Shown here: piece after piece, positions 8,373-60,068 of the stretch
Position numbering within the stretch: position 1 is the first letter of the stretch
How the letters are laid out: each line of letters begins with the position of its first letter
Assembly: GCA_038206135.1 (NCBI GenBank)
Contig: JBBRBD010000002.1
Location: 2,896 to 66,895, forward strand
Direction: 5' to 3'
DNA length: 64,000 nt
DNA from: Patescibacteria group bacterium
GTDB taxonomy: Bacteria; Patescibacteriota; Microgenomatia; UBA8517
Notes under the pieces: model-generated
Told to the model about the DNA's origin: nothing
What the model saw: only the letters and a program-made list of their open reading frames with translations
Database searches by the model: none
Translations under genes and position numbers: made by a program

Positions 8373-8389
8373 AACAAGGAGAAGATTCA

Positions 8390-8899: not shown

Positions 8900-8906
8900 A
8901 AAGGAC

Positions 8907-13406: not shown

Positions 13407-15074
13407 TTATAAACCTTGCTTTTTAGATTGTCCAGATGGCTTGATTTGTTGATTTAGAGCACCTGTTGTATTCTGAGCCTGTCTCAATGTGTCTTCTGTT
13501 CGCTTAGCAGCTTTAGCTTGTTGCCACTCTTCTTGTCTTCTTGATCCAAAAGTTTGGACCCTTCCAAGAACATTGTTAGTTAATTCTTTTCGCACATCTT
13601 TAATTTGTCCTCCTATTGCACCTCCCACAATGCCAGCGCCGAGCATTGTTCCGAATGTGTCAGCTCCATAGCTTCCTCTACCTGAAGCAATTTGATCTCT
13701 CACTCCAGAGGCGATTTTGGGTGCTGAAAAGATGATTCCGAAACCAATAAAGAAGGCAAGAATTTGAATAGGGAAACCTCCAAAACCTGGAAGTAAAATT
13801 GCACTTCCGTTTACTTGGTTTGTTGCAAAGTTGAAGTAGTTTGCACCTCCTGTTAGGATATCTCCGAGCCATCCATTTAAATCAATTGTCATTGTCCAAA
13901 ACACCATGTGTGCTAAGAGCATTGTTAAACAAATAGCTACAAATACAGATAATTGTGCAACCATTTGTCGAATCCAACCACCGATCCCTGGCCCAATTGA
14001 AACCACACCCAGAAGGCCAATAATTGGGGCTCCAATCACCAAAAAGACAATCATAGTGAAAGCTTTAAGCATAGTTACAAATATTCTAAAAATTGCTACT
14101 AGCCCGAGTCCTAGTAGAATTACACCGATAAGTCCGGCTACTGCTCCAACAATTGTTGCGAGTCCACCAGTTGCAATTGTTCCAATTACAGCAGTAGCTC
14201 CTGCTCCAAAGATAAATCCACCTAAAATTATGGTCCAGCCAGTAAATGCTGCAATTGGGTTGTTTAGTTTATTAAAGATGTCAATAACATTTGGAGCACC
14301 ACCTTTAAATAGCCCGCTTTGTGCGACTATTGCAGAGGAAAGTCCCATTACGACATATGCCAAATCTATAATAAGTCCTGCTATTGCATATGAAAAAGTA
14401 ATAAAGATAAGGGCAATTGCAACTTTGGGAAGTGCAGACTGTACACTTACGACTACTTGAGGAGCTATCTTTTGCCTTAACATAATCATAAATGCAAGAA
14501 TAATGATCACAAATGACATGAGTCCAAAAGCAACATTCCTAAATGCTACCCACAATCTTTGGAGTGGTTGAAGTGCTCCGAAACCAGTTCCTTCTTGAGC
14601 ATAAGCATCCTGTACTGGAGAATATTGCCTTATTTTCTGAGCAACATAGTCAATACCAGACGCTGGCTTATGAGATAAAAACGAGTCGGCAGCTCCCGCT
14701 AAAAACAAAACTGGACTACTCAATGGTGCTTCTGCCTGAATGTTTGAAACACATTGTGAAGTATTTGCCCCTGCACTAAAACACTGAGACATTGATCCAG
14801 CCTGAAGTAGCGCAAGGGAATTGACTATCCAATTGACTTGAGCGAACGTATATCTCTCACCAAAAATATCTGTATCATTTGCGCTTCCTGGAGGGAATAC
14901 TTTTGAATTGAATGTGTTTAAATCTGGGTTCCACCATTGGGTAGCATTTCCTGCTGGGGCAGTTTGTGCATGAACATTTGAGATGGGATAGGCCACTGAA
15001 ACAATCACCAATAGAAGTGTTGTAATAGCCAATAATTTATTTTTCATATTTGTAAAAACTTCTATCTTAAACAT
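13407..15074 (-). CDS. VirB6/TrbL-like polytopic membrane protein with N-terminal signal peptide and hydrophilic C-terminal tail
   Basis: 555 aa. Signal-like N-terminus (KNKLLAITTLLLVIVSVAYPISNVHAQ). At least 6 Gly/Ala/Ile-rich TM helices. Charged C-terminus. Sits next to the pilin gene. Confidence 0.5.
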   Translation of the reverse strand: MFKIEVFTNMKNKLLAITTLLLVIVSVAYPISNVHAQTAPAGNATQWWNPDLNTFNSKVFPPGSANDTDIFGERYTFAQVNWIVNSLALLQAGSMSQCFSAGANTSQCVSNIQAEAPLSSPVLFLAGAADSFLSHKPASGIDYVAQKIRQYSPVQDAYAQEGTGFGALQPLQRLWVAFRNVAFGLMSFVIIILAFMIMLRQKIAPQVVVSVQSALPKVAIALIFITFSYAIAGLIIDLAYVVMGLSSAIVAQSGLFKGGAPNVIDIFNKLNNPIAAFTGWTIILGGFIFGAGATAVIGTIATGGLATIVGAVAGLIGVILLGLGLVAIFRIFVTMLKAFTMIVFLVIGAPIIGLLGVVSIGPGIGGWIRQMVAQLSVFVAICLTMLLAHMVFWTMTIDLNGWLGDILTGGANYFNFATNQVNGSAILLPGFGGFPIQILAFFIGFGIIFSAPKIASGVRDQIASGRGSYGADTFGTMLGAGIVGGAIGGQIKDVRKELTNNVLGRVQTFGSRRQEEWQQAKAAKRTEDTLRQAQNTTGALNQQIKPSGQSKKQGL

Positions 15075-15112: not shown

Positions 15113-15427
15113 TTATTTTTGATATATCGTAAAGGTTAAAATCGAGTTTATTCCAATAAATCTAGCAATAATAACAAGCAGTAAGAATGACAATGCTAGA
15201 ACAACAATTCCAATTACTGCATATGTTGCCATGTTTCGTGCGGCTTCCGCTCTTTTAGGGTCACTTCCTGCCATAATAAGGTTAACGCCAGCCAAAAGCA
15301 AAATAATAAAGGCTACAATTCCCGCAAGCGGAATAGCTGCGCGCAAAACATTTGCAAATATATCTTCAAATTCTGAAAGAGTGTTTGGGGTACTAGTTAC
15401 AAGTTGTGCAAAAACTAAAGAGAACAT
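15113..15427 (-). CDS. TrbC/VirB2-family T4SS pilin-like protein
   Basis: 104 aa. Leader then two hydrophobic helices separated by AGSDPKRAEAARNMATY. Same architecture as the tandem pilin paralogs at 20.3-22.6 kb. Confidence 0.6.
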   Translation of the reverse strand: MFSLVFAQLVTSTPNTLSEFEDIFANVLRAAIPLAGIVAFIILLLAGVNLIMAGSDPKRAEAARNMATYAVIGIVVLALSFLLLVIIARFIGINSILTFTIYQK

Positions 15428-15436
15428 AATTATATG

Positions 15437-16912
15437 TTAACTGTTTTTGCAAGAGTTTGGTAGAGGGCGCTCATATAAAACAGAAGCTTCGTCCTCATAC
15501 ACTATTTTCCACACTTTTTTATCAAGTTCCTCTGTCAAATTTATGGGTGATATCTCATTTATCAACTGAGAAGGAGAATTTTCTCTAGTCCATAAAAACC
15601 TGGTGATACAAAATTCTTCAAGTATTGGTTTAATAGGTTCATTTTTAAGACTGAGTGAAATATACGATTGAAGAGCATTTTGTAATTCATTGGGTTTAGT
15701 ATCTTGTCTCCATGGAATCATACGACCGTCAATAAAGACTTTATTTTTTGGAGACTTCCACAAAAGGTATGTATTCCAGTGCAATATTGAAAAAATGTTT
15801 CCTTCATGAGGGTTTTTCGAAATGTAAATGACGGCATTCTCAGGATAAGCTAATTGACTCACAATTATTTTGCTTCGTACGTTTAATATTGTTTCAATAA
15901 TAAGTAAAATAACCCCAAATATAATCGTAATACGAAGAATTTGTAGTAAACGTTTTTTGTCTATCATTTTATTCGCTAAAAATTTATTGCTTGCTTTAAC
16001 GATCACAAAGCTAGCGCTTAAAGCAAAGAGAGGGAGTACTCTTGTTGAAAGCAAACCATTGAGAAGCAGCAGTATCGTAAATATCTCAAGCCATCTGACT
16101 TTCTTTGTCAACCATAGAGTAGTGAAAAACAGTGAGATTAAAGCCAACAAGCTAAAACTAGTAACACGTGTTGCCGGTTGCCATTCAAGTACATATCTAT
16201 TTAAGGGATTTATTATAGTACTGAGTGTCTCTCTCCAAGTACCCAAAAAGTATGGGGTTATTGCTGTGACTAAAGTTGCGGTTAAAACAATGAAAAACAA
16301 ATGCATCTTTAACTTCGAATCAACTGTCTCTGATGAAAAAAGTAAGATGTCTATAATCCAATATCCCCACAGGTATATAACTCCCAGTATAAAACCACCA
16401 TGTAAATTTACCCATAGAAATAGAATTAGCGGAATTGAAATCGCGAGCATTCGAATGTTTTTTTTTGACCGTGACATTAGTGCTATTATTGTCGCTGTCA
16501 ACAGAAAACTAGTTGCTTGAGCACGTGTTCCAAAATTATCCAAACAGCTTGCAGCAAGAAGTGGCATAATCCAAATAGCATTGCCACTCGCTATATAAAT
16601 GCCAATCGTTGCAATTAAAGAGCAAAGAGCAGCGACTCCTACATATCCCAAGTGAAATTTTGAATACACGAGTGCGAAGATAACACTCATACCCCAGGAG
16701 TGGTCAATGTATTTGTATGAGGGCATTGTATAGCTATATGGATCATTAAAATAAAAATTTCCGGAAAGGATGTCCGTCCCGTGCCTCATATGCCAAGGAA
16801 AGTCTGGATCAAGAAATGAATATGCAGCTGCAAATAAGCATATAAATACGATTATCAGAATAAGATTTCTTGCTTTGAAGTATCTTGAAGGCCACTTATT
16901 GATAGTGGTCAT
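15437..16912 (-). CDS. GT-C-fold glycosyltransferase-like polytopic membrane protein (paralog of 18139..19605)
   Basis: 491 aa. About 11 TM helices plus a ~120-aa soluble C-terminal domain. Acidic DPD motif in the first extracytoplasmic loop (FLDPDFPWHMRHGTDIL). Shares YSYTMPSYKYIDHSWG with its paralog. Confidence 0.5.
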   Translation of the reverse strand: MTTINKWPSRYFKARNLILIIVFICLFAAAYSFLDPDFPWHMRHGTDILSGNFYFNDPYSYTMPSYKYIDHSWGMSVIFALVYSKFHLGYVGVAALCSLIATIGIYIASGNAIWIMPLLAASCLDNFGTRAQATSFLLTATIIALMSRSKKNIRMLAISIPLILFLWVNLHGGFILGVIYLWGYWIIDILLFSSETVDSKLKMHLFFIVLTATLVTAITPYFLGTWRETLSTIINPLNRYVLEWQPATRVTSFSLLALISLFFTTLWLTKKVRWLEIFTILLLLNGLLSTRVLPLFALSASFVIVKASNKFLANKMIDKKRLLQILRITIIFGVILLIIETILNVRSKIIVSQLAYPENAVIYISKNPHEGNIFSILHWNTYLLWKSPKNKVFIDGRMIPWRQDTKPNELQNALQSYISLSLKNEPIKPILEEFCITRFLWTRENSPSQLINEISPINLTEELDKKVWKIVYEDEASVLYERPLPNSCKNS

Positions 16913-16951
16913 TTTTGTGATTTCTATTAAATGTAATCATTCATTATTGTA

Positions 16952-18136
16952 TTGAACTCTGTCATAATTCACAATATTTCAGATATGAAAATGTTTTTTA
17001 GAATCCACAAACAAAAAATTAAATATATACTAATTTTGTTTTTATTATCTCGAGTATTTCTAGAAGGAGCAGGTCTGATTGGTGATAGGTGGCTCAAAAA
17101 TGTCAGTACGAACCCTTCAGAGTGGCAAGAAACTAACACTAATATTCCATCCCTTGATATTTGGGCTGTGTGGGATTCTGGATGGTATTTAAATATTGCA
17201 AAATATGGCTATTCAAATGTCACACCAGAAAACCATCCATCAGTAGTTACACCGCAAATGCACAACATTGGGTTTTTTCCGTTGTACCCTGTTTTTATTC
17301 AAGGTATTTCATATATTACTCAAAATAATTATGTTGCCGCGTTAATTGTTTCGAACCTGGCCCTGCTAATTAGTTGTTTTTTACTCTACGAAATTGTTAT
17401 GGAGAAGTATGATGAAATGACAGCAAAACAGACTATAAAGTATTTACTAATTTTTCCCACGTCCTTTATCTTATCTGGTGTTTTTTCTGAGTCTCTTTTC
17501 CTCTTGTTTTTGTTAATATGTTTTTATTTTGCGCAAAAAGGAAAATGGGGAGTAGTTGGTGTCTCTGGTTATTTCCTTTCACTGACTCGGCCTACGGGGT
17601 TTCTACTGGTAATCCCGCTTCTGTTTCTGTATCTAAAAAATTGCAGGTTTGAATTTAAAAAAATAAAACCTAATATCTTATATCTTTCATTATTTGGTAT
17701 GGGAGTTTTTACTTTCATGATTTACACACACCTGTTAAATGGTGATTTTTTAGCCTATTTTCACGCGCAAGAAACAGGCTGGCTCGTCACACATTCTAAT
17801 CCACTAAACATGCTTCAAATGCTCTATTTATATAGTCCAAGCACAAGAATTGTTTTCTGGTTTATACTTGCAGAACTTTTTTTGATTTTTATACATATAA
17901 AGAAAGTTTCACTGGATTATTTGTTAGTCGCTGCAATTTTACTTGGCATACCTCTAATAGAGGGTTTTGGGCCAACTTTCAGTTTACCTAGAATGTCCGT
18001 CGTTGTTTTTCCTTTATTTATAATAATTGCAAAAATGGCAAAAGATAAATATGTTGATAGTGCATTAACATTCGGATTATTATTTCTTCAATTTATATTA
18101 ATGATTTTGTGGAGTAATGGAATTCTGATTATTTAA
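16952..18136 (+). CDS. PIG-V/GT-C-like mannosyltransferase-family membrane protein
   Basis: 394 aa, multi-TM. WDSGWYLNIAKYGY....FFPLYP resembles the conserved motif of PIG-V-type (GT76) and DUF2029-like lipid-linked glycosyltransferases. Confidence 0.45.
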   Translation: MNSVIIHNISDMKMFFRIHKQKIKYILILFLLSRVFLEGAGLIGDRWLKNVSTNPSEWQETNTNIPSLDIWAVWDSGWYLNIAKYGYSNVTPENHPSVVTPQMHNIGFFPLYPVFIQGISYITQNNYVAALIVSNLALLISCFLLYEIVMEKYDEMTAKQTIKYLLIFPTSFILSGVFSESLFLLFLLICFYFAQKGKWGVVGVSGYFLSLTRPTGFLLVIPLLFLYLKNCRFEFKKIKPNILYLSLFGMGVFTFMIYTHLLNGDFLAYFHAQETGWLVTHSNPLNMLQMLYLYSPSTRIVFWFILAELFLIFIHIKKVSLDYLLVAAILLGIPLIEGFGPTFSLPRMSVVVFPLFIIIAKMAKDKYVDSALTFGLLFLQFILMILWSNGILII

Positions 18137-18138
18137 TT

Positions 18139-19605
18139 TTAATAGCAATTCTTTAGAAGATTTTTATGGTACACAACAGATACGGAATCTTCAAATATTA
18201 CAGTCCATCCGTTATCTTTCAACGTTCCGATGAATTTGTAAAAGTCTGCAGGGTTGTACCATCCTGATTTTGTATTTGGGGTGTGCCAAAGGATTGTGTC
18301 AACACAAAATTTCTCGAATATTTCATTATAAGGGATATTACCACTTATTATGTTTTCATACGTATCAAATGCATTATTCAATTCATTTACCTTTGGTTCT
18401 TGTATCCAAACATACATCCTACCATCTATAAATGATTTTTCTGTGGGTATTTTCCAATTCAAGTAACTTCCCCAACTTGCCATAGTAAACACATGTTTAT
18501 GATTTACTTCTTCTATATACGCTATTGAATTATCAGAAGGGAAGAAATCTGACATTATAATGGTGCGGAATCTCAACTGTAAAAGGCACTCAACTACGAA
18601 AACTACTACTGTTATGACGGTTAGTGTATTCAAAAAGAAGTTTAGTCGATGCTTATCTATTTTGTGATCATTCTTCTGTAAATATTTCTCCTGAGCATAA
18701 ATTATTGTTGGTACTGCGCTTATTACAAATATTGGTACAAACCTTACTGACAGTATCCCTTGAATCAAAAGATACACAGTAAAAATATCTCTGAATCTCA
18801 TTTTCTTCAGAAAGTATAATGAGAAAAAAAACAAAAGAATAATAATAACAAACCCAAAACTAGGTAGATTTTTTATTGGCTGCCATTCAATAATATATTT
18901 TCGAAGATCGTTACTTAAGATTGTTCGAGCTGCTTCTCTCCAAGTTCCCAATCCATATGGTGTAAAGAGCGTTGCGAGTGTCGAAATTTGAATTGAAAGG
19001 GTTTTTTGTAACTTGTCTTCAAACGAAAATCTTTTTCTCTCAAGAATATAAATATCTATTAGTAAATACCCCCACAAATAAATTATTCCTAAAGAGAACC
19101 CCCCGTGCAAGTTTGACCACAAAAACATAAAGAGTGGGAGCAGTAAAAACATATTTCTTTTTCTTGAGAAAAAAAAATCAGTAAATTTAAACAAACAGAT
19201 GGTTAAAAAGAATGAAAAGACATGTGCGCGAACACCAAACCCACTAAGATATGAAGATGCAATTATTGGTATAAGCCATATTAACTCGAAGGACAAAAGT
19301 GTTGCTCCGAGAGTTGCAACTCCTGCAATAAAAATTGAAACAAGGCCATATCCTCCTATCTTATAAATGAATTTAAAGATAATGCTAGATAGCAACGAGT
19401 GATCCACATATTGAAAGGAAGGCATTGTGTAGCTGTATTGATCAAATTTAGGAATACCACTGGTTAATATATCTGTGGAATATTTTAAATGCCATGGAAA
19501 ATCTACATCAAAGAAGGTTGTCGCTGCTAAAAACAAGCCAACAAAGCAAACAAAAACAACAGCTTTCCTCGCAGTCAAAAAGTTTTTTATCGTACCGATT
19601 ACCAT
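18139..19605 (-). CDS. GT-C-fold glycosyltransferase-like polytopic membrane protein (paralog of 15437..16912)
   Basis: 488 aa. FFDVDFPWHLKYSTDIL and YSYTMPSFQYVDHS motifs shared with its paralog. Same TM topology pattern. Confidence 0.5.
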   Translation of the reverse strand: MVIGTIKNFLTARKAVVFVCFVGLFLAATTFFDVDFPWHLKYSTDILTSGIPKFDQYSYTMPSFQYVDHSLLSSIIFKFIYKIGGYGLVSIFIAGVATLGATLLSFELIWLIPIIASSYLSGFGVRAHVFSFFLTICLFKFTDFFFSRKRNMFLLLPLFMFLWSNLHGGFSLGIIYLWGYLLIDIYILERKRFSFEDKLQKTLSIQISTLATLFTPYGLGTWREAARTILSNDLRKYIIEWQPIKNLPSFGFVIIILLFFFSLYFLKKMRFRDIFTVYLLIQGILSVRFVPIFVISAVPTIIYAQEKYLQKNDHKIDKHRLNFFLNTLTVITVVVFVVECLLQLRFRTIIMSDFFPSDNSIAYIEEVNHKHVFTMASWGSYLNWKIPTEKSFIDGRMYVWIQEPKVNELNNAFDTYENIISGNIPYNEIFEKFCVDTILWHTPNTKSGWYNPADFYKFIGTLKDNGWTVIFEDSVSVVYHKNLLKNCY

Positions 19606-20237
19606 AACTTGGGTATAAGCCGGAACTTTACGAGAGTAGCGTATCCTTTGTATTTTTTTGAGTTAAATAGCAGTTTTTCCTCGTCAATAATACGCTTATA
19701 AACACAAAACACCCAGAAAGCAAACAAGAGTATTCTCAAAGTTTGAATTGGTGTAAGAATTAAAAACATTGTATTCACCCATAGATATGATAAATACATA
19801 GGATGTCGTATGTATTTATAAGGACCTGCAGTCACAATACCCCTATTTGAAGCAAAAATATCAATGGACTTCCCAAGGCTGTATATTGAATACGCTGTAA
19901 TTAAAGAACCAACAATAACGAGAATATCTACACCTGCTGCGTATCTGAAGTGTCCGAAGCCAAAAAATAGAGGGAGATATGTTCCGAGAATAGCCCAGAG
20001 ATATGAGGTTTTTCTACCTTTAGTGCTATTTGACGGTCGTCGAATCAGAAAAAATAGAGAAAACAAGACATTTGTTACAAGTGCAACTATCGCGAGTGTT
20101 AAATCTCTGTAAAGTAAATATCCAGGAGGAGAAGATATTACTGCATTTCTTAATGAAACAAGAGAACTTAAAAACCCACAAAAATATAAAGCAGAAATAA
20201 GCCCTGAGACGACATAATCTTGAGTAGTATTTCTCAT
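19599..20237 (-). CDS. Isoprenylcysteine carboxyl methyltransferase (ICMT)/phospholipid methyltransferase-family membrane methyltransferase
   Basis: 212 aa. IVTAGPYKYIRHPMYLSYLW matches the RHP.Y signature of the ICMT/PEMT family. Overlaps the GT-C gene by 7 nt, so the two are in an operon. Confidence 0.6.
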   Translation of the reverse strand: MRNTTQDYVVSGLISALYFCGFLSSLVSLRNAVISSPPGYLLYRDLTLAIVALVTNVLFSLFFLIRRPSNSTKGRKTSYLWAILGTYLPLFFGFGHFRYAAGVDILVIVGSLITAYSIYSLGKSIDIFASNRGIVTAGPYKYIRHPMYLSYLWVNTMFLILTPIQTLRILLFAFWVFCVYKRIIDEEKLLFNSKKYKGYATLVKFRLIPKLW

Positions 20238-20303
20238 TTAAGTATCTTATCAAAAAACAAACACTCCATCGAGGAGTGTTTGTAAAAAAACTAATGATAT
20301 TTT

Positions 20304-20645
20304 TTATGTGCCGGTTACGCTTGCAATTGAGAAATTCAAGATCGATACACCAAACACTGTTTGTACTAACTGTGCAATAGCCCATGCTGAGAATATAATT
20401 ACAAGACCAATAAGAGCTGCTGTAATTTGTCCTCGAGCGGCTTCTGTTTGAGCTTTATCTCCACCGGAGAGTACCCAACGGAGACCTCCGACGATAAGCA
20501 TAAAGAAGAAAATAAGTCCTGCAACGGCAACTATTAGTGTAATTGCCCAACTAACTAGATCACCCAATTGAAAACCAGTCGGATTTCCAACTCCACTAGG
20601 ACTTAAGTTGAATGATTGTGCGAACACTGTAGATAATAAATTCAT
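20304..20645 (-). CDS. TrbC/VirB2-family pilin-like protein (paralog 1)
   Basis: 113 aa. Leader, helix, SGGDKAQTEAARGQITAALIG, helix. Same two-helix pilin topology as the other paralogs. Confidence 0.6.
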   Translation of the reverse strand: MNLLSTVFAQSFNLSPSGVGNPTGFQLGDLVSWAITLIVAVAGLIFFFMLIVGGLRWVLSGGDKAQTEAARGQITAALIGLVIIFSAWAIAQLVQTVFGVSILNFSIASVTGT

Positions 20646-20788
20646 GTCATTTCGTCACCTCCTTAAAAGATTTTGTAAAAATCGTATATAATAACACGAT
20701 TCTTTTTTTAATGTCAAACTATACACACATGCTGATAGTTCATATATATTTATCGCGTATTTGGCAGGTAAAAGTCAAGAGGATAGTA

Positions 20789-21130
20789 TTAAGTGGCAGG
20801 TTGCATAAGCGGCGCTAGATTTATATTCAAAAGACTGATTCCAAAGACTGCCTCAACTAGTTTTGCAATTGCCCAAACACTAACCATAACTACCAGCCCT
20901 GTAATTGCTTGTGTTATTTGTGCTCGTGCATTTTCTATTTGAGCTTTATCTCCACCAGATGTAATCCATCTGATACCACCAATTAAAAGCATAAAAAAGA
21001 AGGCAAGGCCTCCAATCATAAACAAGAGCGTAATCATTTTTGGAATGAAGTCTCCAAAAAATGTGGCACCGTCTCCAGTCAGTTTAGGTGTTGCGAGGTT
21101 TGTAATCTGTGCGAAAACTGTTGAGTACAT
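20789..21130 (-). CDS. TrbC/VirB2-family pilin-like protein (paralog 2)
   Basis: 113 aa. TSGGDKAQIENARAQITQAITG loop between two hydrophobic helices. Confidence 0.6.
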   Translation of the reverse strand: MYSTVFAQITNLATPKLTGDGATFFGDFIPKMITLLFMIGGLAFFFMLLIGGIRWITSGGDKAQIENARAQITQAITGLVVMVSVWAIAKLVEAVFGISLLNINLAPLMQPAT

Positions 21131-21135
21131 GATAT

Positions 21136-21504
21136 TTATGGTGTCAGAGTTTTTATTGCTGCAGCAAGATTCAAAATATCAAAACCAAGTATCTGGCCGA
21201 CCAAACTCACGATAAAGACGCTAATCACAACAATTACAAGTCCAATTAGTCCGTTAGAGATGCGTTTTTTAGCCGTTTCTACAGCTCCTTTATCTCCACC
21301 CGCAGTAATCCATCCAATTGCGCCTATGAAAAGCGTAAAAATAAACCAGATTCCAGCAACAACAGTCATTACAGCAATGATTGTTGAGATAAGCTTTTCA
21401 AAATTTGCTGCGGGATCTCCACCAGTTGCAAAAATTCCAGTTCCAGGTCCGGAGAAGCCACCCGTAGTTGGTGCAAAATCTAATGTGCCTGCAAGTCTAT
21501 TCAT
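21136..21504 (-). CDS. TrbC/VirB2-family pilin-like protein (paralog 3)
   Basis: 122 aa. TAGGDKGAVETAKKRISNGLIG loop. 5-nt gap to neighbours. Confidence 0.6.
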   Translation of the reverse strand: MNRLAGTLDFAPTTGGFSGPGTGIFATGGDPAANFEKLISTIIAVMTVVAGIWFIFTLFIGAIGWITAGGDKGAVETAKKRISNGLIGLVIVVISVFIVSLVGQILGFDILNLAAAIKTLTP

Positions 21505-21505
21505 A

Positions 21506-21838
21506 TTAAAATGTTAAAGTAGGGTGTAAAAGCGCATCTGCTTTTCCATAAACAAGTAACCCAATTACACCGGCGATCAGGAATGCTCCAACTAAAAATA
21601 CAAGGCCTATGATTGTTTGATATATTTTTGCCCACGCCGATTCCATCCCTTTAGGATTATCACCAGCTGCTAAGAATGCGTAACCTGCCAAGATAAAATT
21701 AAGAAGTGCCCAGATCCCTCCAGCAACAATAAGAACATTAAAAATAAGTTGCAATATGTTTCCAAGCGCAGTTGCTGGGTTACTTCCCCAAACTGCAGTA
21801 GCAGGGGGTTGGTGAATTGTTCCAAAAGGATCAGTCAT
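21506..21838 (-). CDS. TrbC/VirB2-family pilin-like protein (paralog 4)
   Basis: 110 aa. AAGDNPKGMESAWAKIYQTIIG loop between hydrophobic helices. Confidence 0.55.
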   Translation of the reverse strand: MTDPFGTIHQPPATAVWGSNPATALGNILQLIFNVLIVAGGIWALLNFILAGYAFLAAGDNPKGMESAWAKIYQTIIGLVFLVGAFLIAGVIGLLVYGKADALLHPTLTF

Positions 21839-21880
21839 ATAAGTTAAATAATAATAGCAAATAAAAGCTTCAATTGAAAA

Positions 21881-22237
21881 CTACGGACAAGGATTGGTAG
21901 GTGTTCCACAAGAACTTACATTTGGTCCTGTAATAAAATTGACACCAGTAATAGACTCCACAATTCTTATTATAAAAAATGAAGCTAGAACAACAATGAA
22001 CCCAATAACCGCCCAAGTTATCGCTTGGTGACCTTGTGCTGAAGCTTTTGGGTCATTGTTCCCAGCACCCATTATTACTTGTAAACCTCCACCTACAAGA
22101 AGGAATACTACAATGACACCAGCAACAACTAATGATCCGCTCAAAATAATCGAAACTAGATCGCCGATGCTTTTTGTCTGTCCAAACGGTGTATTTAGTT
22201 CTTTTCCAATATCTACGGCTGCAAAAATATTAGTCAT
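21881..22237 (-). CDS. TrbC/VirB2-family pilin-like protein (paralog 5)
   Basis: 118 aa. MGAGNNDPKASAQGHQAITWAVIG loop. C-terminus contains Cys (…SSCGTPTNPCP). Confidence 0.55.
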   Translation of the reverse strand: MTNIFAAVDIGKELNTPFGQTKSIGDLVSIILSGSLVVAGVIVVFLLVGGGLQVIMGAGNNDPKASAQGHQAITWAVIGFIVVLASFFIIRIVESITGVNFITGPNVSSCGTPTNPCP

Positions 22238-22243
22238 AAATGT

Positions 22244-22624
22244 TTATACAAATGTGCTTGTGATCCCCGGCAAGTTAAATATAGCGCCAATAATTTGAAT
22301 TATGATATAAGCCGTGAGCATGAGCAACAAACCAAGAAAGCCATTCTTAATTCTTTCTTGTCCTGCCTTAACTTTAGCAGGATCACCAGCCGCCGTCATA
22401 AGACTGATCCCTGCAAGCACCAAGTTGATAATGAGTGCAATACCTCCTAAATAAAACAAAAGCCCGACTATTCCATATGGGTAATTGTTGATCAAATTTG
22501 AGAGGTTTGCGTTTCTTAGCAAATAACTGTTGCCTGGTGTCTGATTAATTGACTTTTCAAGATCATCCAAACAACCTGCATTAAAAGTACCAGCAGGGCA
22601 TGCTGCTAAAATTATTGAATACAT
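22244..22624 (-). CDS. TrbC/VirB2-family pilin-like protein (paralog 6)
   Basis: 126 aa. TAAGDPAKVKAGQERIKNGFLG loop. N-terminal region has two Cys residues. Confidence 0.55.
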   Translation of the reverse strand: MYSIILAACPAGTFNAGCLDDLEKSINQTPGNSYLLRNANLSNLINNYPYGIVGLLFYLGGIALIINLVLAGISLMTAAGDPAKVKAGQERIKNGFLGLLLMLTAYIIIQIIGAIFNLPGITSTFV

Positions 22625-22639
22625 AAATTATTGTAACAT

Positions 22640-24157
22640 CTAAAAAAGCCCGAGTACATTAACTCCAATTATTCGTAAAATAAAGACAGCAAATGCAAGC
22701 ATTACAAGGCCAGAGAATGCAGAGATTAAAAGTTCTTTTCCCATTTGGAGTTTCGAGACATCTCCACTGCTTGTAATAATTTGGAATGCTGCGGCAATAA
22801 GAACAAGAATTACGAGTCCACCACCAATGCCCAAACCCCATGTTATGAAAAAAGCTTCAAAATTGGTAATAGTCTCAATTGGCACACAACCGATTGCGGT
22901 ATCCACACCTATGATTCCTGCCTTGTTACAATATCCAGCGAAAGCGGCGATGGCAGAGGGTGGTGCAACTTGATTGCATGCCGTTAGGGTAGGACAGCAA
23001 TAGTCAATACTTGTTCCCGTATTAGGAACTGATCGAGAGCAATATACACCACTTGCTTTTGCACAATCAGCGCGACTAATTCCTCCGGGGATACAGGTAT
23101 TCAGAGGCACGCTGCAAATTGAGCCTCTACAACTCCCAGACATACATTCTGAATCAGTTGTACAAGTCCCGGCGAGGGGAATTCTGTTTTCTTTACATTT
23201 ACAAACACCACTACTTGCTTCTATATCAATATCACCCTGTAAACAACTAAATGAGTTGTTTTGTGAGCTATAACAACAATAGCCTCCAATTGAGCCACAA
23301 CCATTGTTATTGGGGATTACACAACTGCCTATCATTGATTGATTAAAGTTTGAACCTGAAGCGTCTACTGGATTAATCCAACAACCATTACATTGACTTT
23401 TGGTGGTACTTCCTTGGCAAGTGATACTCACCACTCCTGCACATTGTCCTCCTCGATTTCCACAATTAAAGTTTCCTGTTTGAACTTGCTTTGTACAAAC
23501 TCCAGGAGCTACAGCTCCGCTTGCGGGAGATGTTGTACACCAATAATTGTCACCACCTACGCATGTAAACCCATTCAGGGCATCACATTGGTCGTTTGTA
23601 ACACATGAAGTTCCATCTCCTCCTTGGCCAGGTATTGCCCCCGGGAGACACTTGCTTCCGATACAAGTAAGACCTTGTTTGCAAGGGTTTGTCCCGGAAC
23701 ATGCCTCGCAAGTATCTGGAAGAGCCGGAGGTTGTGATGAAACAGTTACAGATCCGCTGCAAAGATCTGTTTGTGAGCCCAACAATCCTGCTTGTCTAAA
23801 AACAAGCGTGTTAGCACCATCTACAAAAAGGGGATTACCATCGTTATCGTTCAAAACGGTAAAAGTCCCTCCTGTGTCTGAAATTTGATTCCCAACATCA
23901 ATCCATTTTCCCGTTGAAGGAGAATATATATTGAATGTCGAGTTGGATTTTGATATCCCGCCAAATCCACCCGAGATTTGCATTTCAATATTGTTTCCTG
24001 GTTGAACAGTTGCTGTTAAAACAATCAAATCACAGCTTGCAGCACTGACAGTATTAGGCTTAATACCTGATAAGCATAAGAATAGTGCGCTTATGAGGAA
24101 CAGCAATAAGAATCTCTTCGAATTTTGTAATAACAATTTTCCTTGGTGGAAATTCAT
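22640..24157 (-). CDS. Secreted Cys-rich protein (about 400-aa extracellular domain with more than 40 Cys in CxxC/EGF-like spacing) fused to a C-terminal TrbC/VirB2 pilin domain
   Basis: 505 aa. Signal peptide (KRFLLLFLISALFLCLSGIKPNTVSA). Long Cys/Gly/Thr-rich region. C-terminus FFITWGLGIGGGLVILVLIAAAFQIITSSGDVSKLQMGKELLISAFSGLVMLAFAVFILRIIG is the pilin two-helix module. Confidence 0.6.
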   Translation of the reverse strand: MNFHQGKLLLQNSKRFLLLFLISALFLCLSGIKPNTVSAASCDLIVLTATVQPGNNIEMQISGGFGGISKSNSTFNIYSPSTGKWIDVGNQISDTGGTFTVLNDNDGNPLFVDGANTLVFRQAGLLGSQTDLCSGSVTVSSQPPALPDTCEACSGTNPCKQGLTCIGSKCLPGAIPGQGGDGTSCVTNDQCDALNGFTCVGGDNYWCTTSPASGAVAPGVCTKQVQTGNFNCGNRGGQCAGVVSITCQGSTTKSQCNGCWINPVDASGSNFNQSMIGSCVIPNNNGCGSIGGYCCYSSQNNSFSCLQGDIDIEASSGVCKCKENRIPLAGTCTTDSECMSGSCRGSICSVPLNTCIPGGISRADCAKASGVYCSRSVPNTGTSIDYCCPTLTACNQVAPPSAIAAFAGYCNKAGIIGVDTAIGCVPIETITNFEAFFITWGLGIGGGLVILVLIAAAFQIITSSGDVSKLQMGKELLISAFSGLVMLAFAVFILRIIGVNVLGLF

Positions 24158-24163
24158 ATGTGT

Positions 24164-25087
24164 TTAAAATAACCCAAGAATAGTTATCCCTAGTATTCTA
24201 AAAATGAAGACTGAAAGTGCTAGTAGAATAATTCCAGAAACGGCAGACATCAAAAGCTCTTTTCCTACTTGTAATCTTTTTGGATCTCCTTGTGATGTCA
24301 TTACCATAAACGAAGCATACACTAAGAATAGTGTACCAATTCCTCCCGCGATACCTAAGCCCCATTTAAGGAAAAAAGCGGCAAATGTGTTAGTATCGCC
24401 AATCGGTATGCATCCAATTGCAGTATCAATATTGTTGGTACTGCAATTTCCTTGAATATTAACACTCGTAACTGGCTGGGTTCCAGTCCCCGGATTTCCA
24501 ATTTGTCCGTTTGGGAGACAGCAGGACGAAACATTGCTGGGACAGCTACCGGTTATTGATGTTTCTGTTCCACTACAAGCTGTTTTGCATGTTGCTTTTG
24601 GATTCACTGAAGTACACGCACCTGGATTAACAGCAGTTGTACAAGCAGAGGCACAGGTTGCTGAGTCTGTGTATGGAGCAGGTGGGCCACTTGTGCAATC
24701 AGGGATTGATGTCTGTGGATCATAATCACATTGAGAGCAAGATTTAGCGCCAGTAGCCGAGGTATCACACTTATAACCTCCATTGGGAACTGTTTGTGTA
24801 GTACAAGGGATAAATAAAGGCTGATTAATACAAGAACTCACTGGTTGGCTCCGACAAAATGAAAAAAGATCTGAGCTCGGAGGGGTAGCTCCCGTAGCAC
24901 AACTATTGGCAGCTGGATTGCCTCCTGGAGCTGGACCCGTTTCACAAAATTGTGTTGCATCTTGATATACACAAACAACACAACCTTTACTGGGGTCAGG
25001 ACAAGACGATGCTTGAGCTAATACTTCTTTTTTTGAAACATTGAACAACAAAAAGACTAGGACTATGAATGATATTGCTTTTTTCAT
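24164..25087 (-). CDS. Secreted Cys-rich protein fused to a C-terminal TrbC/VirB2 pilin domain (smaller paralog of 22640..24157)
   Basis: 307 aa. Signal peptide. Cys-rich extracellular domain. C-terminus FFLKWGLGIAGGIGTLFLVYASFMVMTSQGDPKRLQVGKELLMSAVSGIILLALSVFIFRILG. Confidence 0.6.
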   Translation of the reverse strand: MKKAISFIVLVFLLFNVSKKEVLAQASSCPDPSKGCVVCVYQDATQFCETGPAPGGNPAANSCATGATPPSSDLFSFCRSQPVSSCINQPLFIPCTTQTVPNGGYKCDTSATGAKSCSQCDYDPQTSIPDCTSGPPAPYTDSATCASACTTAVNPGACTSVNPKATCKTACSGTETSITGSCPSNVSSCCLPNGQIGNPGTGTQPVTSVNIQGNCSTNNIDTAIGCIPIGDTNTFAAFFLKWGLGIAGGIGTLFLVYASFMVMTSQGDPKRLQVGKELLMSAVSGIILLALSVFIFRILGITILGLF

Positions 25088-25167
25088 ATAACTTGTTTTA
25101 AGTGTATCAAATTTTTAGCAACTGAAAATCCCAAATTACATAGAATCCAGACTGGTATAATCAATCA

Positions 25168-26865
25168 ATGAAAAGAATTAGACTCCTTTTTTTGCTCGCT
25201 GTTTTTACTTCCACTTTGTTTCTTTTTCCAAAAGCTTTTTCTTTCGCTGATATCAATTGTGATAGCGGCAGTTTAAGTGGATCTGATATTGATGTGTGCT
25301 TGGCTAAACTTCAACACGATGCTGATGCCTTGGCACCTGCAAACGAGAATAATAAAAAAGAACTTGCTGCATTGCAGGCTCAAGTTATTAAGCTAAAAGC
25401 AAGTATTGCAAGCTTAACCAAACAAGTTAGCTCACTGAGTACTAAAATTACGACAAGAACAAGTGATCTTTCGTATGCTCAAAAGGTTTTTAATGAAAAG
25501 GCTAACAACCAATACAAGGTCCTGAGGCTATATGATCCGCTTTCAGCTTTTCTTGAAAACCAAAGTGCAAAAGATGTTTTTCTCCAGCTTGAGATGAGGC
25601 AGCGAGCAGTTGACGGTGATCGCATAACGATGGAGACCTATTCAAAAGATTTGGCAGCACTTGCTTCTGACAAAGCTACTCTTGAAAAAAACAAAACAAG
25701 TTTAGCTAATTTGCAAGTCTCAGTGGACAAACGCGCAACTTTTTTGAGTGGAGAAGTTGCAAAAGTTGAAGACTATTTAGCTAAACTTTCTAGTAGGCAA
25801 GAAGAGCTCTTAGCGTTAAAAGCTGGAGGATTTGAAACATCAGTCGGAGATACACCTCCAACTCTAGACCCTTGTAGTGGTGCCCCTGGAACAAGTAGTT
25901 TTTGTGATCCAGGCTTTAGACCAGCATTTGCAGGGTTTAGCTTTGGAGCACCTCACAGAACAGGTATGAGCCAATATGGGGCACTGGGAAGAAGTAAGCA
26001 AGGCCAAAATGCAGAAACAATTCTTGCAGCATACTATCAAGGTTCATCGTTAAATAAAGGGTATCCAGATACCACTATTGGAGTGAGTGGTTTTGGGAGA
26101 AAACCAATTGAAGAATATCTTTTGGGCCTCTATGAAGTTCCCGAAAGTTGGGGCGATCAAGGTGGTTTTGAGGCATTAAAAGCTCAAGCAGTTGCAGCAC
26201 GTAGTTATGCACTCTCTGTAACTAACAATGGTGCAGGAACTATTTGTACTACAGAGGCGTGCCAAGTATATAAACCTCAGCTTAAAACAGGAAAATGGGC
26301 AGAAGCAGTGAGAGCTACTAAAGGCTGGGTGCTTATAAAAGATGGGGGACCAGCGAAAGCATATTTTGCGGCATCAAGTGGTGGATATACAATCAGCCAA
26401 TGGGGATGGAGCGGCATTAAAGATGCTGCTGGTGATTGGCCAGCAACTGCATATGAGAAGGTTGGTGGTTCGCCTTGGTTTTACAAAGGTTGGTTTAGGT
26501 CGAGAAGCGGGGCAACTTGTGGGCTTTCGAACCCTTGGCTTACGAGTACTCAAATGGCTGATATTCTAAATGCATGGCAGGTACTTTTTAACGGAGGTGG
26601 CGATCAGGGCAGAATTAGTCCACACGACAAGTGTTTTGGTGGAAACCCATATTCTATATCTGATTTAGCTTCAATTGGGGGATATTCAAGTGTAAGTAAT
26701 GTAAATGTAGTTTATGGAAACGATGGATCTACAAAGCAGCTTACTTTTCAAACAAATAAAGGCTCTGTTACGATAAACGGTTCTGATCTTCAAAAAGCCT
26801 TTAATCTAAGAGCGCCTGGAAATATTGGTATTAAAAGTTCGCTCTACAATATAGAGAAACTCTAA
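25168..26865 (+). CDS. SpoIID/LytB-domain peptidoglycan hydrolase with an N-terminal signal peptide and coiled-coil region. Candidate cell-wall remodelling (VirB1-analogous) enzyme of the T4SS locus.
   Basis: 565 aa. Coiled-coil-like N-terminal third (KKELAALQAQVIKLKASIASLTKQVSSL…). C-terminal block HRTGMSQYGALGRSKQGQNAETILAAYYQG…ALKAQAVAARSYAL…AYFAASSGGYT is typical of the SpoIID/LytB family. Confidence 0.7.
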   Translation: MKRIRLLFLLAVFTSTLFLFPKAFSFADINCDSGSLSGSDIDVCLAKLQHDADALAPANENNKKELAALQAQVIKLKASIASLTKQVSSLSTKITTRTSDLSYAQKVFNEKANNQYKVLRLYDPLSAFLENQSAKDVFLQLEMRQRAVDGDRITMETYSKDLAALASDKATLEKNKTSLANLQVSVDKRATFLSGEVAKVEDYLAKLSSRQEELLALKAGGFETSVGDTPPTLDPCSGAPGTSSFCDPGFRPAFAGFSFGAPHRTGMSQYGALGRSKQGQNAETILAAYYQGSSLNKGYPDTTIGVSGFGRKPIEEYLLGLYEVPESWGDQGGFEALKAQAVAARSYALSVTNNGAGTICTTEACQVYKPQLKTGKWAEAVRATKGWVLIKDGGPAKAYFAASSGGYTISQWGWSGIKDAAGDWPATAYEKVGGSPWFYKGWFRSRSGATCGLSNPWLTSTQMADILNAWQVLFNGGGDQGRISPHDKCFGGNPYSISDLASIGGYSSVSNVNVVYGNDGSTKQLTFQTNKGSVTINGSDLQKAFNLRAPGNIGIKSSLYNIEKL

Positions 26866-59993: not shown

Positions 59994-60068
59994 GTTTGTT
60001 TACATTACTTGACAAGATGTATACAAACAACTATACTTTGTTTACATCTTAAGGGAAGTGTATACAAT

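Follow-up and report, generated by a model that had tools for sequence, protein, structure and literature searches.

The stretch of DNA analyzed here (the window, 64,000 nucleotides) holds nine genes that share one two-helix module, seven of them small (P3 to P9) and two long (F1 and F2), together with genes of a type IV secretion system (T4SS) (Table 1). A previous inspection of the letters alone (the sequence-only reading) had described a nine-gene pilin expansion with further paralogs at 20304 and 15113. All nine open reading frames, including these two (P8 and P9), were present on the minus strand, and each matched PF18895 (T4SS_pilin) in a Pfam search.

Table 1. Features of the pilin array and its surroundings, in window positions
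Feature	Position	Strand	Basis or note
F1, long pilin, 307 aa	24164-25087	minus	ORF, PF18895 match
F2, long pilin, 505 aa	22640-24157	minus	ORF, PF18895 match
P3, small pilin, 126 aa	22244-22624	minus	PF18895, 36 bits
P4, small pilin, 118 aa	21881-22237	minus	PF18895, 32.6 bits
P5, small pilin, 110 aa	21506-21838	minus	PF18895, 30.3 bits
P6, small pilin, 122 aa	21136-21504	minus	PF18895, 33.4 bits
P7, small pilin, 113 aa	20789-21130	minus	PF18895, 40.1 bits
P8, small pilin, 113 aa	20304-20645	minus	PF18895, 39.3 bits
P9, small pilin, 104 aa	15113-15427	minus	PF18895, 35.4 bits
Divergent intergenic region, likely F1-P7 operon promoter	25088-25167	minus	block AAAAATTTGATACACT
Gap upstream of P8, 143 nt	20646-20788	minus	promoter-like sites, perfect Shine-Dalgarno AAGGAGGTGA
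Putative intrinsic terminator directly after P8	20257-20283	minus	11-bp stem, then T run
Block splitting the array between P8 and P9, 4.8 kb	15437-20237	mixed	Pfam matches
ICMT-like methyltransferase	19599-20237	minus	Pfam match
Two paralogous ~490-aa polytopic proteins	18139-19605, 15437-16912	minus	
PMT_2-type glycosyltransferase	16952-18136	plus	Pfam match
Polytopic membrane protein, 555 aa	13407-15074	minus	VirB6/PrgH-type channel subunit position
SpoIID-domain protein, 565 aa	25168-26865	plus	PF08486, E 4.4e-16
PrgI family (VirB3-like) T4SS protein	4286-5383	minus	PF12666, 29.7 bits
VirB4-like T4SS ATPase, 650 aa	1637-3589	minus	PF19044 TraG P-loop, E 6e-31

From F1 to P7, the last gene of a tightly packed operon, the intergenic gaps measure 6, 15, 6, 42, 1, and 5 nt, while P8 lies 143 nt past P7 and P9 a further 4,876 nt past P8. 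The close spacing given in the sequence-only reading (1 to 43 nt; 1 to 42 nt as measured) holds for F1 to P7. P8, however, is not simply a member of the operon of six tandem paralogs and two fusions described there, because it has a promoter-like site, a ribosome-binding site, and a terminator of its own.

The ICMT-like and ~490-aa genes of the block that splits the array also occur 3' of the P8 ortholog in three relatives (L006, L010, and L011) and are absent from L001/L002, in which the orthologs of P8 and P9 are neighbors. At the other end, a SpoIID gene divergently adjoins the array in every relative examined (L001 to L003, L006, L009, and L018); its product is a candidate cell wall remodeling partner that may play a VirB1-like role. 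In L018, a more distant, complete genome of 0.80 Mb, SpoIID is followed by a long pilin and then by about seven small pilins. P9 is located 38 nt upstream of the gene for the 555-aa polytopic protein, with which it is probably cotranscribed, and its ortholog (L001_j, 50% identity) lies in L001 between the P8 ortholog and the gene for a 550-aa protein. This 550-aa protein, encoded after the pilins in L001/L002, has 42% identity with the 555-aa protein. No Pfam or NCBIfam match was obtained for the latter, and none of its 285 homologs (0/285) carries a Pfam domain; homologs with taxon names belong to Woesebacteria, Microgenomates, or Patescibacteria, in keeping with the host lineage proposed below. 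Its position suggests a VirB6/PrgH-type channel subunit.

The PrgI family protein has a C-terminal CarboxypepD_reg-like domain, and a 365-aa member of the PrgI family stands at the corresponding place in L001/L002; the VirB4-like ATPase also matches DUF87 and AAA_10. Pilins, the 550-aa polytopic protein, PrgI, a TraC-like protein, VirB4, and an amidase are contiguous in L001/L002, with PrgI, TraC-like, and VirB4 genes in the order seen in the window, where virB4 is 17 to 21 kb from the array. Five relatives preserve the synteny of the pilins with the genes for VirB4, PrgI, and the polytopic protein. Neither a relaxase nor a coupling protein was seen nearby.

One module family with diverged copies

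Against the curated (gathering) cut-off of PF18895, 26.6 bits, the seven small genes score above it, at 30 to 40 bits, and F1 and F2 below it, at 22 to 23 bits (22.2 bits over residues 240 to 298 and 22.9 bits over residues 435 to 496, respectively), with the match confined to the C-terminal 60 residues. The nine modules nevertheless form a single alignment (family alignment A1), a check suggested in the sequence-only reading. An HMM derived from it, run against all six translated frames of the window, matched exactly these nine, with E values of 1e-23 to 1e-40 (F1, 78 bits; F2, 76 bits); the next-best match had an E value of 0.28, so that a tenth copy is absent from the window and chance is excluded. 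These results support the expansion of one pilin-module family to nine genes, two of which are fusions.

Identity between core modules averages 26% (minimum, 12%; maximum, 57%, for P7/P8; 53% for F1/F2), which bears out the earlier description of family-level similarity only. The loop consensus of the sequence-only reading needs correction: two Gly columns are all that is invariant among the nine, and the D of the loop motif (G/S-G-D-K/P) is nearly invariant in a wider alignment. Together with a C-tail motif, the loop is conserved across 84,334 cluster representatives, and in other organisms the module is fused 2 to 17 times within single polypeptides (polypilins), which implies coassembly.

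The modules had also been called TrbC/VirB2-like. Architecture and genomic association agree with that name, but sequence homology is undetectable: the nine proteins had no match to Pfam TrbC (PF04956), five genuine VirB2/TrbC proteins, compared with them profile to profile, gave a probability of 1.3%, and a PDB profile search retrieved no conjugative pilin. The predicted fold is compatible with conjugative pilins, and helical hairpins are structurally generic: the AF2 model of P7 is a hairpin of helices 21 to 57 and 62 to 96 (core pLDDT, >90), and that of F1 places helices at 232 to 263 and 269 to 298 (pLDDT, 72 to 88) behind a low-confidence ectodomain.

Leader-peptidase sites, a check proposed with the sequence-only reading, were evident in part. 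F1 and F2 begin with Sec signal peptides (..EVLA↓QASSC and ..TVSA↓ASC), but most small pilins start with a vestigial signal-peptide end (…VFAQ), with 4 to 9 residues ahead of a (V/I)-x-A↓Q motif, and reading of their N termini revealed no functional-length signal peptide. P5 begins M..PFG and is without the ..AQ motif; P4 has two Cys in its C-terminal tail. A class III signal peptide (G↓F..E) is absent from all nine proteins.

Orthology, expression signals, and long pilins

P3 to P9 display strict 1:1 positional orthology across L009/L010, L006, and L001. Orthologs of P3 are L009_c, L006_c, and L001_d, and those of P4 are L009_d, L006_d, and L001_e; identities are 64 to 84% for P5, 59 to 85% for P6, 60 to 85% for P7, and 63 to 83% for P8 (L010_h, L006_h, and L001_i). 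Because window paralogs are 39 to 85% identical to their positional orthologs but only about 26% identical to one another, the duplications are old and the copies have been kept, in agreement with the earlier statement that recent duplication is not involved. No lineage-specific duplications, losses, or gene conversion tracts were found in the small pilins of the four related contig sets. Every array gene is under purifying selection (pN of 0.09 to 0.44 versus pS of 0.62 to 0.85; dS is saturated, which makes dN/dS values rough), as befits the functional diversification that had been suggested. Antigenic variation, the other suggestion, is disfavored for the small pilins by the strict orthology and conserved order; hypervariability is limited to the long-pilin ectodomains.

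P8 is set apart by its expression signals, among which the promoter and terminator were called by their match to a consensus. The gap upstream contains a promoter-like site, TTGACA-18-TATTAT (20717..20688; 11/12 matches to consensus), with TG before it, and can be aligned with the corresponding gap in L006, L010, L001, and L002, the Shine-Dalgarno sequence and an upstream TTGACT...GATAAATA block being invariant. A 10-nt Shine-Dalgarno match occurs at P8 only among the 66 genes of the window. Every P8 ortholog is followed by a hairpin and T run, with both sides of the stem altered in L006, L010, and L001. Promoter-like sites are not in excess over the region as a whole (31 found versus 37 expected). 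Judged by these signals, P8 is a candidate major, highly expressed subunit. Upstream of the F1-P7 operon, in contrast to P8, no Shine-Dalgarno sequence was found in the divergent intergenic region, within which the tabulated block is conserved in L006 and L009.

F1, with 22 Cys over its full length, carries behind its signal peptide an ectodomain of ~205 aa rich in Cys, Ser, Thr, and Pro, followed by a C-terminal anchor module (C..IDTAIGCIPI and two helices). F2 has the same anchor module after a Cys/Gly/Ser-rich ectodomain of ~400 aa (37 Cys in the whole protein). Full-length F1 orthologs in L006, L009, and L001 share 39 to 44% identity by BLASTP, with a conserved anchor and a variable N terminus (alignment A4); most F1 homologs have only the C-terminal ~30% in common and bear other N-terminal domains, including cohesin. 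The sole F2 ortholog, L006_b, is 78% identical; the F2 ectodomain is 12 to 15% identical to that of every other long pilin, versus 51 to 60% for the anchor. Among the relatives compared, long-pilin anchors are 45 to 92% identical and the Cys-rich ectodomains 12 to 48%, so by sequence comparison the ectodomains are hypervariable and the anchor is conserved. Two long pilins each are found in the window, L006, and L009, and three in L001. A cohesin-bearing long-pilin homolog in L017 lies outside any array and adjoins a giant surface protein.

A proposed envelope structure and its alternatives

We consider it reasonably probable that the locus as a whole represents a pilin array belonging to a chromosomal, monoderm-type (MPF-FATA-like) T4SS in a Microgenomatia/Woesebacteria-type Patescibacterium. 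The nine genes would encode nonredundant subunits of a single T4SS-associated structure of the envelope, for which a pilus-like tube or conduit leading to the host cell is the likeliest form. P8, with a conserved promoter and a terminator of its own and the only strong ribosome-binding site in the window, would supply the major subunit, made in abundance. P3 to P7, which would be made at a low level from the Shine-Dalgarno-less F1-P7 operon, and P9, coupled to the VirB6-position membrane protein, may be minor, initiating, or adaptor subunits, with P3, P4, P5, and P6 as candidate minor subunits. In F1 and F2, the two-helix module would serve as an anchor or polymerization domain, and the exchangeable, disulfide-rich N-terminal ectodomains, which would face outward, could make them adhesin or host recognition subunits.

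We know of no pilus observed for any Microgenomatia, which counts against a pilus, as does the undetectable VirB2/TrbC homology. Further, the small pilins have no functional-length signal peptide, unlike VirB2, TraA, and TrbC, and multimodule polypilins would be polytopic, which is hard to fit with one-by-one extraction into a filament. The modules might instead be membrane-embedded or wall-spanning channel parts of the T4SS, a heteromeric ring or stalk of hairpins, with the long forms as surface proteins anchored through their hairpin. Fusions of 2 to 17 modules in other organisms, which must remain membrane bound and polytopic, would suit this arrangement, as would the absence of a cleavable-length signal peptide from the small pilins, the coupling of P9 to the polytopic VirB6-position protein, and the cohesin-anchor protein of L017, whose location away from arrays suggests that the anchor module may be a mere membrane anchor; Gram-positive T4SSs are also generally without pili (PMC10633639, PMC12102498). 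We regard channel parts as unlikely, in view of the strong separate expression signals of P8, which suit a bulk polymer better than a stoichiometric part, the published interpretation of the essential series of a Saccharibacterium as pilins (PMC10633639, PMC12857230), and a fold compatible with conjugative pilins.

Divergence among the paralogs (26% mean identity), the differences in long-pilin number and ectodomains among relatives, and a published suggestion of adaptation to different host strains (PMC12102498) could also be explained by alternative versions of one pilin under differential expression or antigenic or host range selection. Such versions are distinctly improbable, given that the small pilins keep strict 1:1 positional orthology in four related contig sets, that each copy is under purifying selection, and that polypilin fusions imply coassembly; moreover, seven of the genes are cotranscribed, with gaps of 1 to 42 nt, and are therefore made together. 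Finally, the proteins might be unrelated, small membrane proteins with two helices (holin-like, immunity, or stress proteins) whose likeness to pilins lies in the hydrophobicity pattern alone, helical hairpins being generic and weak, subthreshold Pfam matches to PspC-TM, RseC, and Flp1-like families being present. This reading is largely refuted, and we give it very little credence: seven of the nine score above the gathering cut-off of PF18895 and none above that of any other family, VirB4/PrgI/polytopic-protein synteny is kept across five relatives, and the loop and C-tail motifs persist across the 84,334 cluster representatives.

Comparison with known systems

Agrobacterium VirB2/TrbC (PF04956) similarly has two hydrophobic helices and a short charged loop, is encoded in a T4SS locus, and has a predicted signal-peptidase site (A-x-A↓Q) resembling the (V/I)-x-A↓Q motif; its leader, however, is ~47 residues long versus the 4 to 9 residues here. 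In its own system VirB2 is the one major pilin, with VirB5 as its partner, whereas this locus has nine paralogs in a monoderm host, and VirB5 was not found here. NF045849, a Mycoplasma ICE Mbov_0395-family pilin-like protein, is matched weakly by eight of the nine modules (E values of 8.7e-8 to 0.016), and these weak but consistent matches connect the module with MPF-FATA conjugation systems of monoderms. Membership in NF045849 was rejected, as the best score, 31.7 bits, falls below its 40-bit cut-off; unlike the array, the Mycoplasma gene is single copy and on a mobile element. Type IV pili and type II secretion systems combine an abundant subunit, low-abundance operon paralogs, and larger subunits with adhesive domains. 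The proposed major/minor/adhesive division would be analogous, although the fold is unrelated, the assembly machine is different, and the class III signal peptide is lacking here.

Bartonella and Anaplasma phagocytophilum VirB2 arrays are likewise tandemly amplified, diverged T4SS pilins of host-dependent organisms; there, in intracellular pathogens that are diderm, they are read as antigenic or host range versions of a single pilin (as cited in PMC12102498; PMC3556328). The paralogs here, by contrast, are anciently fixed, positionally orthologous, and cotranscribed. The T4SS cluster of Southlakia epibionticum ML1 (SEML1_0006-0019), likened here by description, comprises a divergent pilin series, essential by Tn-seq (Wang et al. 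2023, PMC10633639), with a Gram-positive-type T4SS and, as at this locus, no recognizable coupling or relaxase proteins. S. epibionticum belongs to the Saccharibacteria and has six pilins (PMC12857230); the present locus is Microgenomatia-like and has nine modules, two of them in large fusions.

Pilin arrays in Patescibacterial T4SS loci are already known (PMC12102498, PMC10633639; reviewed in PMC12857230), a point that the sequence-only reading did not make. Quinonero-Coronel et al. (2025, PMC12102498) reported 441 arrays of 2 to 11 pilin genes, abundant in Microgenomatia, with a mean pilin identity of 25% and a maximum of 54%. The array described here, with 8 + 1 genes and identities of 26% (mean) and 57% (maximum), is not categorically different: in both, PF18895 genes are tandem or split by nonpilin genes and belong to a chromosomal T4SS of MPF-FATA ancestry, without a relaxase or coupling protein in sight nearby. 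We found no mention in the searched text of PMC12102498 of long Cys-rich fusion pilins leading the array, short N termini, positional orthology, or separate expression signals of one paralog. What this locus adds is the 1:1 positional orthology, the signals of P8, the contrast between anchor and ectodomain, and the vestigial signal-peptide ends.

A family of nine PF18895 pilin modules within a T4SS locus

Eight consecutive minus-strand reading frames run from position 25087 down to 20304, and a ninth lies 4.9 kb off, past four non-pilin genes. All nine proteins match the Pfam family PF18895 (T4SS_pilin), for which the gathering score is 26.6 bits. The seven small pilins (P3 to P9, 104 to 126 aa) scored 30.3 to 40.1 bits, above this value, and the two long, fusion-type pilins, F1 (307 aa) and F2 (505 aa), scored 22.2 and 22.9 bits, under it, in a match covering the last ~60 residues only; F1 and F2 are tied to the family by a window-derived HMM (76 to 78 bits) and by homologs bearing precomputed PF18895 assignments. 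The nine modules aligned as a single family, and an HMM built from this alignment, run without filters against the six-frame translation of all 64 kb, recovered exactly nine modules at E values of 1e-23 to 1e-40, with the next match at 0.28. Identity across the core module averaged 26% (minimum, 12%; maximum, 57%). AF2 modeled P7 with confidence as a helical hairpin (helices 21-57 and 62-96; pLDDT, 90 to 96) and gave the C-terminal anchor of F1 helices at 232-263 and 269-298. Hydropathy profiles showed hydrophobic segments joined by K/R-rich loops, as expected for PF18895, which is characterized by two long helices and a short polar loop. The sequence-only reading had placed nine pilin modules here, of one two-helix type and alike at family level only; these observations are confirmed, and their interpretation is supported in part.

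Positions of the array genes and neighboring features in the window
Feature	Position	Strand	Remarks
VirB4-like ATPase	1637-3589		TraG P-loop, DUF87, AAA_10
PrgI/VirB3-like protein	4286-5383
E2/JAB/E1 operon	7542-10743		276-aa protein, E2-like (8390-8899), JAB (8907-9989), E1/ThiF (9880-10743)
555-aa polytopic protein	13407-15074	-	Directly after P9; without Pfam match; VirB6/PrgH-type position inferred
P9	15113-15427	-	N-terminal stub, 15404-15427
Block between P8 and P9	15437-20237		4.8 kb; ICMT-like methyltransferase, two paralogous ~490-aa polytopic proteins (no Pfam match), PMT_2 (GT-C) glycosyltransferase
Hairpin and T run	20257-20283		Directly 3' of P8
P8	20304-20645	-	N-terminal stub, 20616-20645
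Gap before P8	20646-20788		Promoter-like sequence
P7	20789-21130	-	N-terminal stub, 21107-21130
P6	21136-21504	-
P5	21506-21838	-
P4	21881-22237	-	N-terminal stub
P3	22244-22624	-	N-terminal stub
F2	22640-24157	-	Long pilin
F1	24164-25087	-	Long pilin
SpoIID-domain gene	25168-26865	+	Divergent from the array

Gaps from F1 to P7 are 6, 15, 6, 42, 1, and 5 nt, followed by 143 nt ahead of P8, so that eight genes stand in tandem (gaps of 1 to 143 nt), and by 4,876 nt ahead of P9. The window is chromosomal, with DnaG, RpoD, SmpB with tmRNA, eight tRNAs, an archaeal-type SAM synthetase, and a Zn ABC transporter; no rRNA gene was found in it. It also holds monoderm-type T4SS genes, the T4SS core company that is likewise characteristic of PF18895. 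No coupling protein or relaxase was found among the window ORFs scanned, and Pfam searches at E values up to 1 returned nothing for the 555-aa, 764-aa, 488-aa, and 491-aa neighbors. Homologs of the 555-aa protein also carry no Pfam domain, and those that are named belong to Candidatus Woesebacteria, Microgenomates, or "Patescibacteria group," which points to a Microgenomatia-like Patescibacterium as the probable host of the locus.

Two further features were observed in the window. The E2/JAB/E1 operon resembles bacterial ubiquitin-like conjugation or defense modules (PADLOC E2, JAB, and E1-E2 models) and sits inside the T4SS locus, in the interval from the 764-aa gene to PrgI; it is not at that place in the related locus L001. 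At 59988-61220 and 54675-55328, a Fic-domain gene with a strong PADLOC SoFic match (E = 3.5e-106) is found with a DDE_3 transposase gene near it.

Conserved paralogs and expression signals in related loci

Syntenic contigs were reached via homologs of P7, and our own comparison consists of the related contigs named here; counts of pilin arrays over many genomes come from the literature. In L001 to L003 (GCA_964568925.1), genes for SmpB, DUF5657, and SpoIID are followed divergently by three long and seven small pilins, all ten being contiguous in L001. After the pilins come a 550-aa protein that is 42% identical to the 555-aa protein of the window, an ~897-aa protein, PrgI, a TraC-like protein, VirB4, and an amidase, and the series from pilin through polytopic protein, PrgI, and TraC-like protein to VirB4 is contiguous in L001 and L002. 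In L006 (GCA_027347685.1) and L009 to L011, SpoIID is accompanied by six small and two long pilins, after which, as in the window, an ICMT-like gene and polytopic genes of ~490 aa follow. SpoIID also stands with one long and about seven small pilins in the more distant L018 (CP055308.1, a complete 0.80-Mb genome). Based on this synteny, both the array and its location within the T4SS locus are lineage-wide features. The SpoIID-domain gene divergently adjoins the array in every relative examined (L001, L006, L009, and L018), with a conserved block of SmpB, DUF5657, and an ~620-aa gene beyond it, and its product possibly fills in for the absent cell-wall hydrolase VirB1. The block of 4.8 kb that separates P8 from P9 is common to L006, L010, and L011 and missing from L001, relative to which it looks like an insertion; it may act in modification of an envelope component or of pilin, or be an unrelated insertion. 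The record of the closest long syntenic contig, CAZMSJ010000001.1 (L005/L002), is titled "uncultured Gammaproteobacteria bacterium," in conflict with its gene content; since Patescibacteria are indicated by the PF18895 array, PrgI, and DUF5657, as well as by the names of homologs, the record is probably mislabelled.

The best intergenome BLAST match of every small pilin was the gene at the same position. Specifically, the counterparts of P3 to P8 are genes c to h in L009/L010 and L006, and those of P3 to P9 are genes d to j in L001. Positional orthologs were 39 to 85% identical, compared to ~26% between paralogs. Values of pN (0.09 to 0.44) were far below those of pS (0.62 to 0.85) in every pilin gene, much as in the neighboring SpoIID gene, and dN/dS estimates of 0.04 to 0.26 are to be read as indicative, since dS is saturated. 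Same-position orthology, together with pN far below pS, indicates that the duplications predate these lineages and that each copy has been kept, a pattern that favors distinct structural roles over interchangeable antigenic variants. The proposal made from the sequence, functional or antigenic diversification rather than recent duplication, stands as to the age of the copies, given the 1:1 orthologs, and fits the low pN as to functional divergence; its antigenic variant is disfavored for the small pilins.

P8 is set apart by its flanking signals. The gap before it contains a promoter-like TTGACA-18-TATTAT with a preceding TG (11/12 matches) and can be aligned in L006, L010, L001, and L002, where AAGGAGGTGA and an upstream TTGACT...GATAAATA block are invariant. 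As a perfect 10-nt Shine-Dalgarno sequence, AAGGAGGTGA occurs at P8 only among the 66 window genes, 56 of which have fewer than 5 matching bases; the F1-to-P7 genes have none. The hairpin 3' of P8 has an 11-bp stem, and this terminator is kept in relatives with both sides of the stem changed. A conserved promoter-like block also lies upstream of the F1-to-P7 genes, within the 80 nt that separate them from the divergent SpoIID gene, and several window genes carry a GGTATAAT box directly 5' of the ATG, which suggests leaderless or short-leader mRNAs. Promoter-like sites showed no overall excess in the region. From these consensus-level signals, we infer that P8 would be the bulk (major) subunit and the other pilins minor, which singles out P8 for study by antibodies, proteomics, and cryo-ET.

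Ectodomains of the long pilins and N-termini of the small pilins

F1 (22 Cys in the whole protein) and F2 (37 Cys) begin with Sec signal peptides. Their ectodomains have a high content of Cys, Gly, Ser, Thr, and Pro and lead into the two helices through a conserved "C..IDTAIGCIPI" segment. In a comparison of eight long pilins taken from four genomes, anchors were 45 to 92% identical, whereas ectodomains were 12 to 48% identical; for the three long pilins of L001, compared pairwise, the corresponding ranges were 66 to 85% and 19 to 25%. A database search with F1 returned 43 matches, most of them over its C-terminal ~30% only, with N-terminal domains that differ in length and type, including one cohesin. 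These comparisons suggest that ectodomains are exchanged on a conserved anchor, and host recognition is most likely to depend on the long Cys-rich pilins, the fast-evolving element of the array. For F1, the AF2 model was confident in the hairpin only (ectodomain pLDDT, 32 to 71). The cohesin-domain homolog (L017, 8001-8927; GCA_034680565.1) has the long-pilin anchor module and lies away from any array, next to a 1,682-aa cohesin/CBM surface protein, and the module can therefore also act as a plain membrane anchor for surface proteins. In L006 (GCA_027347685.1), the F2 ortholog contains an in-frame TAG (8116-8118) exactly at the junction of ectodomain and anchor, and the anchor is intact in the frame beyond it; a split gene, a pseudogene, and an assembly error are all conceivable.

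In 18 of the 26 small pilins of the window and its relatives, 4 to 9 mostly hydrophobic residues precede the motif (V/I/L)(F/L/Y/S)A(Q/A), as in MYSTVFAQ, MNLLSTVFAQ, and MFSLVFAQ. The chance of such a match in a random 16-mer of the same composition is ~6%, for a motif defined post hoc. In the long pilins and in distant homologs, which have complete signal peptides, the same (V/I/L)xA(Q/A) motif stands at the end of the peptide, at the signal-peptidase site, and Agrobacterium-type VirB2 proteins likewise have an A-x-A-Q site, at the Gln of which mature VirB2 starts. An alternative genetic code or an upstream extension was ruled out as the source of the short N-termini, as stop-to-stop ORFs leave 3 to 16 upstream codons and table 11 yields tight, clean gene packing. 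The stubs look like truncated (vestigial or miniature) signal peptides retained under selection.

Relation to known pilins and to published arrays

The sequence-only reading had called the modules TrbC/VirB2-like, a label that searches for sequence homology did not bear out. None of the nine proteins matched Pfam PF04956 (TrbC) at E values up to 0.1, a profile of 28 sequences found no conjugative pilin among PDB sequences, and Foldseek returned nothing with an E value below 1. An hhalign comparison of 24 small pilins with five annotated VirB2/TrbC proteins, taken from plasmids by tblastn with Agrobacterium VirB2, gave a probability of 1.3%. These results being negative or nonspecific, "VirB2-like" describes architecture and genomic company only, homology not being demonstrated. 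TrbC/VirB2 proteins have a long N-terminal Sec leader cut by signal peptidase and polymerize into an extracellular pilus, and some cyclize head to tail. The small pilins, in contrast, have no long leader, only 4 to 9 residues before the motif in ORFs that cannot be extended, whereas F1 and F2 have full signal peptides. No TraF/S26-type peptidase was found among the ORFs scanned, a set that covers part of the small ORFs. Eight of the nine modules matched NCBIfam NF045849 (Mbov_0395 pilin-like conjugal transfer protein, Mycoplasma ICE) weakly, at 14.9 to 31.7 bits, with P4 the best and all under the cutoff of 40 bits. Type IV/Flp pilins were rejected, the prepilin-peptidase site G|F/M-x-x-x-E being absent from all nine sequences; Flp1_like gave a subthreshold match to P8 only (E = 0.058; 13 bits against a cutoff of 33.5). 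Sortase-type (LPXTG) signals were likewise absent from the nine sequences.

The small-pilin profile matched 84,334 cluster representatives at E values up to 1e-3 and 17,431 at up to 1e-10. Many top matches are single polypeptides of 2 to 17 modules and up to 1,775 aa, here termed polypilins (e.g., P0096, P0098, P0100, P0104, and P0105). The four that were read are genuine in-frame tandem repeats, with 6 modules in P0096 and 17 in P0100, and some metagenome polypilins also bear Cys-rich domains. Such fusions imply that several modules would work jointly in one assembly. They suit individually extracted filament subunits less well and lend weight to a rival explanation, less likely than not, in which pilin modules would be components of a membrane or cell-wall channel. 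On a bolder reading, which we likewise consider less likely than not, the array would build an ordered T4SS filament or conduit of several subunit types, in a cell-wall-bearing monoderm. P8 would form its bulk, resting on six fixed minor pilins as base or adaptor, and long pilins would cap it, their cassette-like, disulfide-rich ectodomains determining host specificity. No Sec leader would be involved in membrane entry of the small subunits, which would keep only a vestigial ..VFA|Q processing motif, and polypilins elsewhere would be covalently preassembled layers of the same tube. Such a pilus architecture, if real, would differ from that of T- and F-pili, which have a single pilin.

Patescibacteria, which live attached to host cells, account for much of bacterial diversity. 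In Southlakia epibionticum, the one Patescibacterial species tested, the T4SS and the series of predicted pilins in its gene cluster are essential, being required for epibiotic growth (Wang et al. 2023, PMC10633639). A survey using PF18895 and PF04956 reported 441 arrays, of 2 to 11 pilin genes each, in 383 Patescibacterial assemblies (Quinonero-Coronel et al. 2025, PMC12102498), and a 2025 review repeats the finding and speculates on a pilus (PMC12857230). The text of PMC12102498 has no relevant mention of "fusion," "fused," or "cysteine" and none of "signal peptide"; the two related assemblies are absent from its supplementary tables, and our literature search found no paper uniting Patescibacteria, VirB2, and "cysteine-rich." On these grounds, the fixed paralogs, the P8 signals, the fusion pilins, and the N-termini may be new increments. 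The locus opens no new category and sharpens the question of what structure the pilins build and what passes through it, the paralogs being fixed, individually conserved parts rather than variants. Three testable refinements follow, namely, fixed nonredundant paralogs, P8 as candidate major subunit, and hypervariable adhesin-like long pilins; the vestigial leaders and polypilins are loose ends. Within the published arrays, identity averages 25% with a maximum of 54% (PMC12102498), and the values found here (mean, 26%; minimum, 12%; maximum, 57%) fit, as does the layout of tandem genes with one set apart by non-pilin genes. Together with the Southlakia cluster (PMC10633639), this comparison identifies the window array as a further instance of the published Patescibacterial T4SS pilin arrays.
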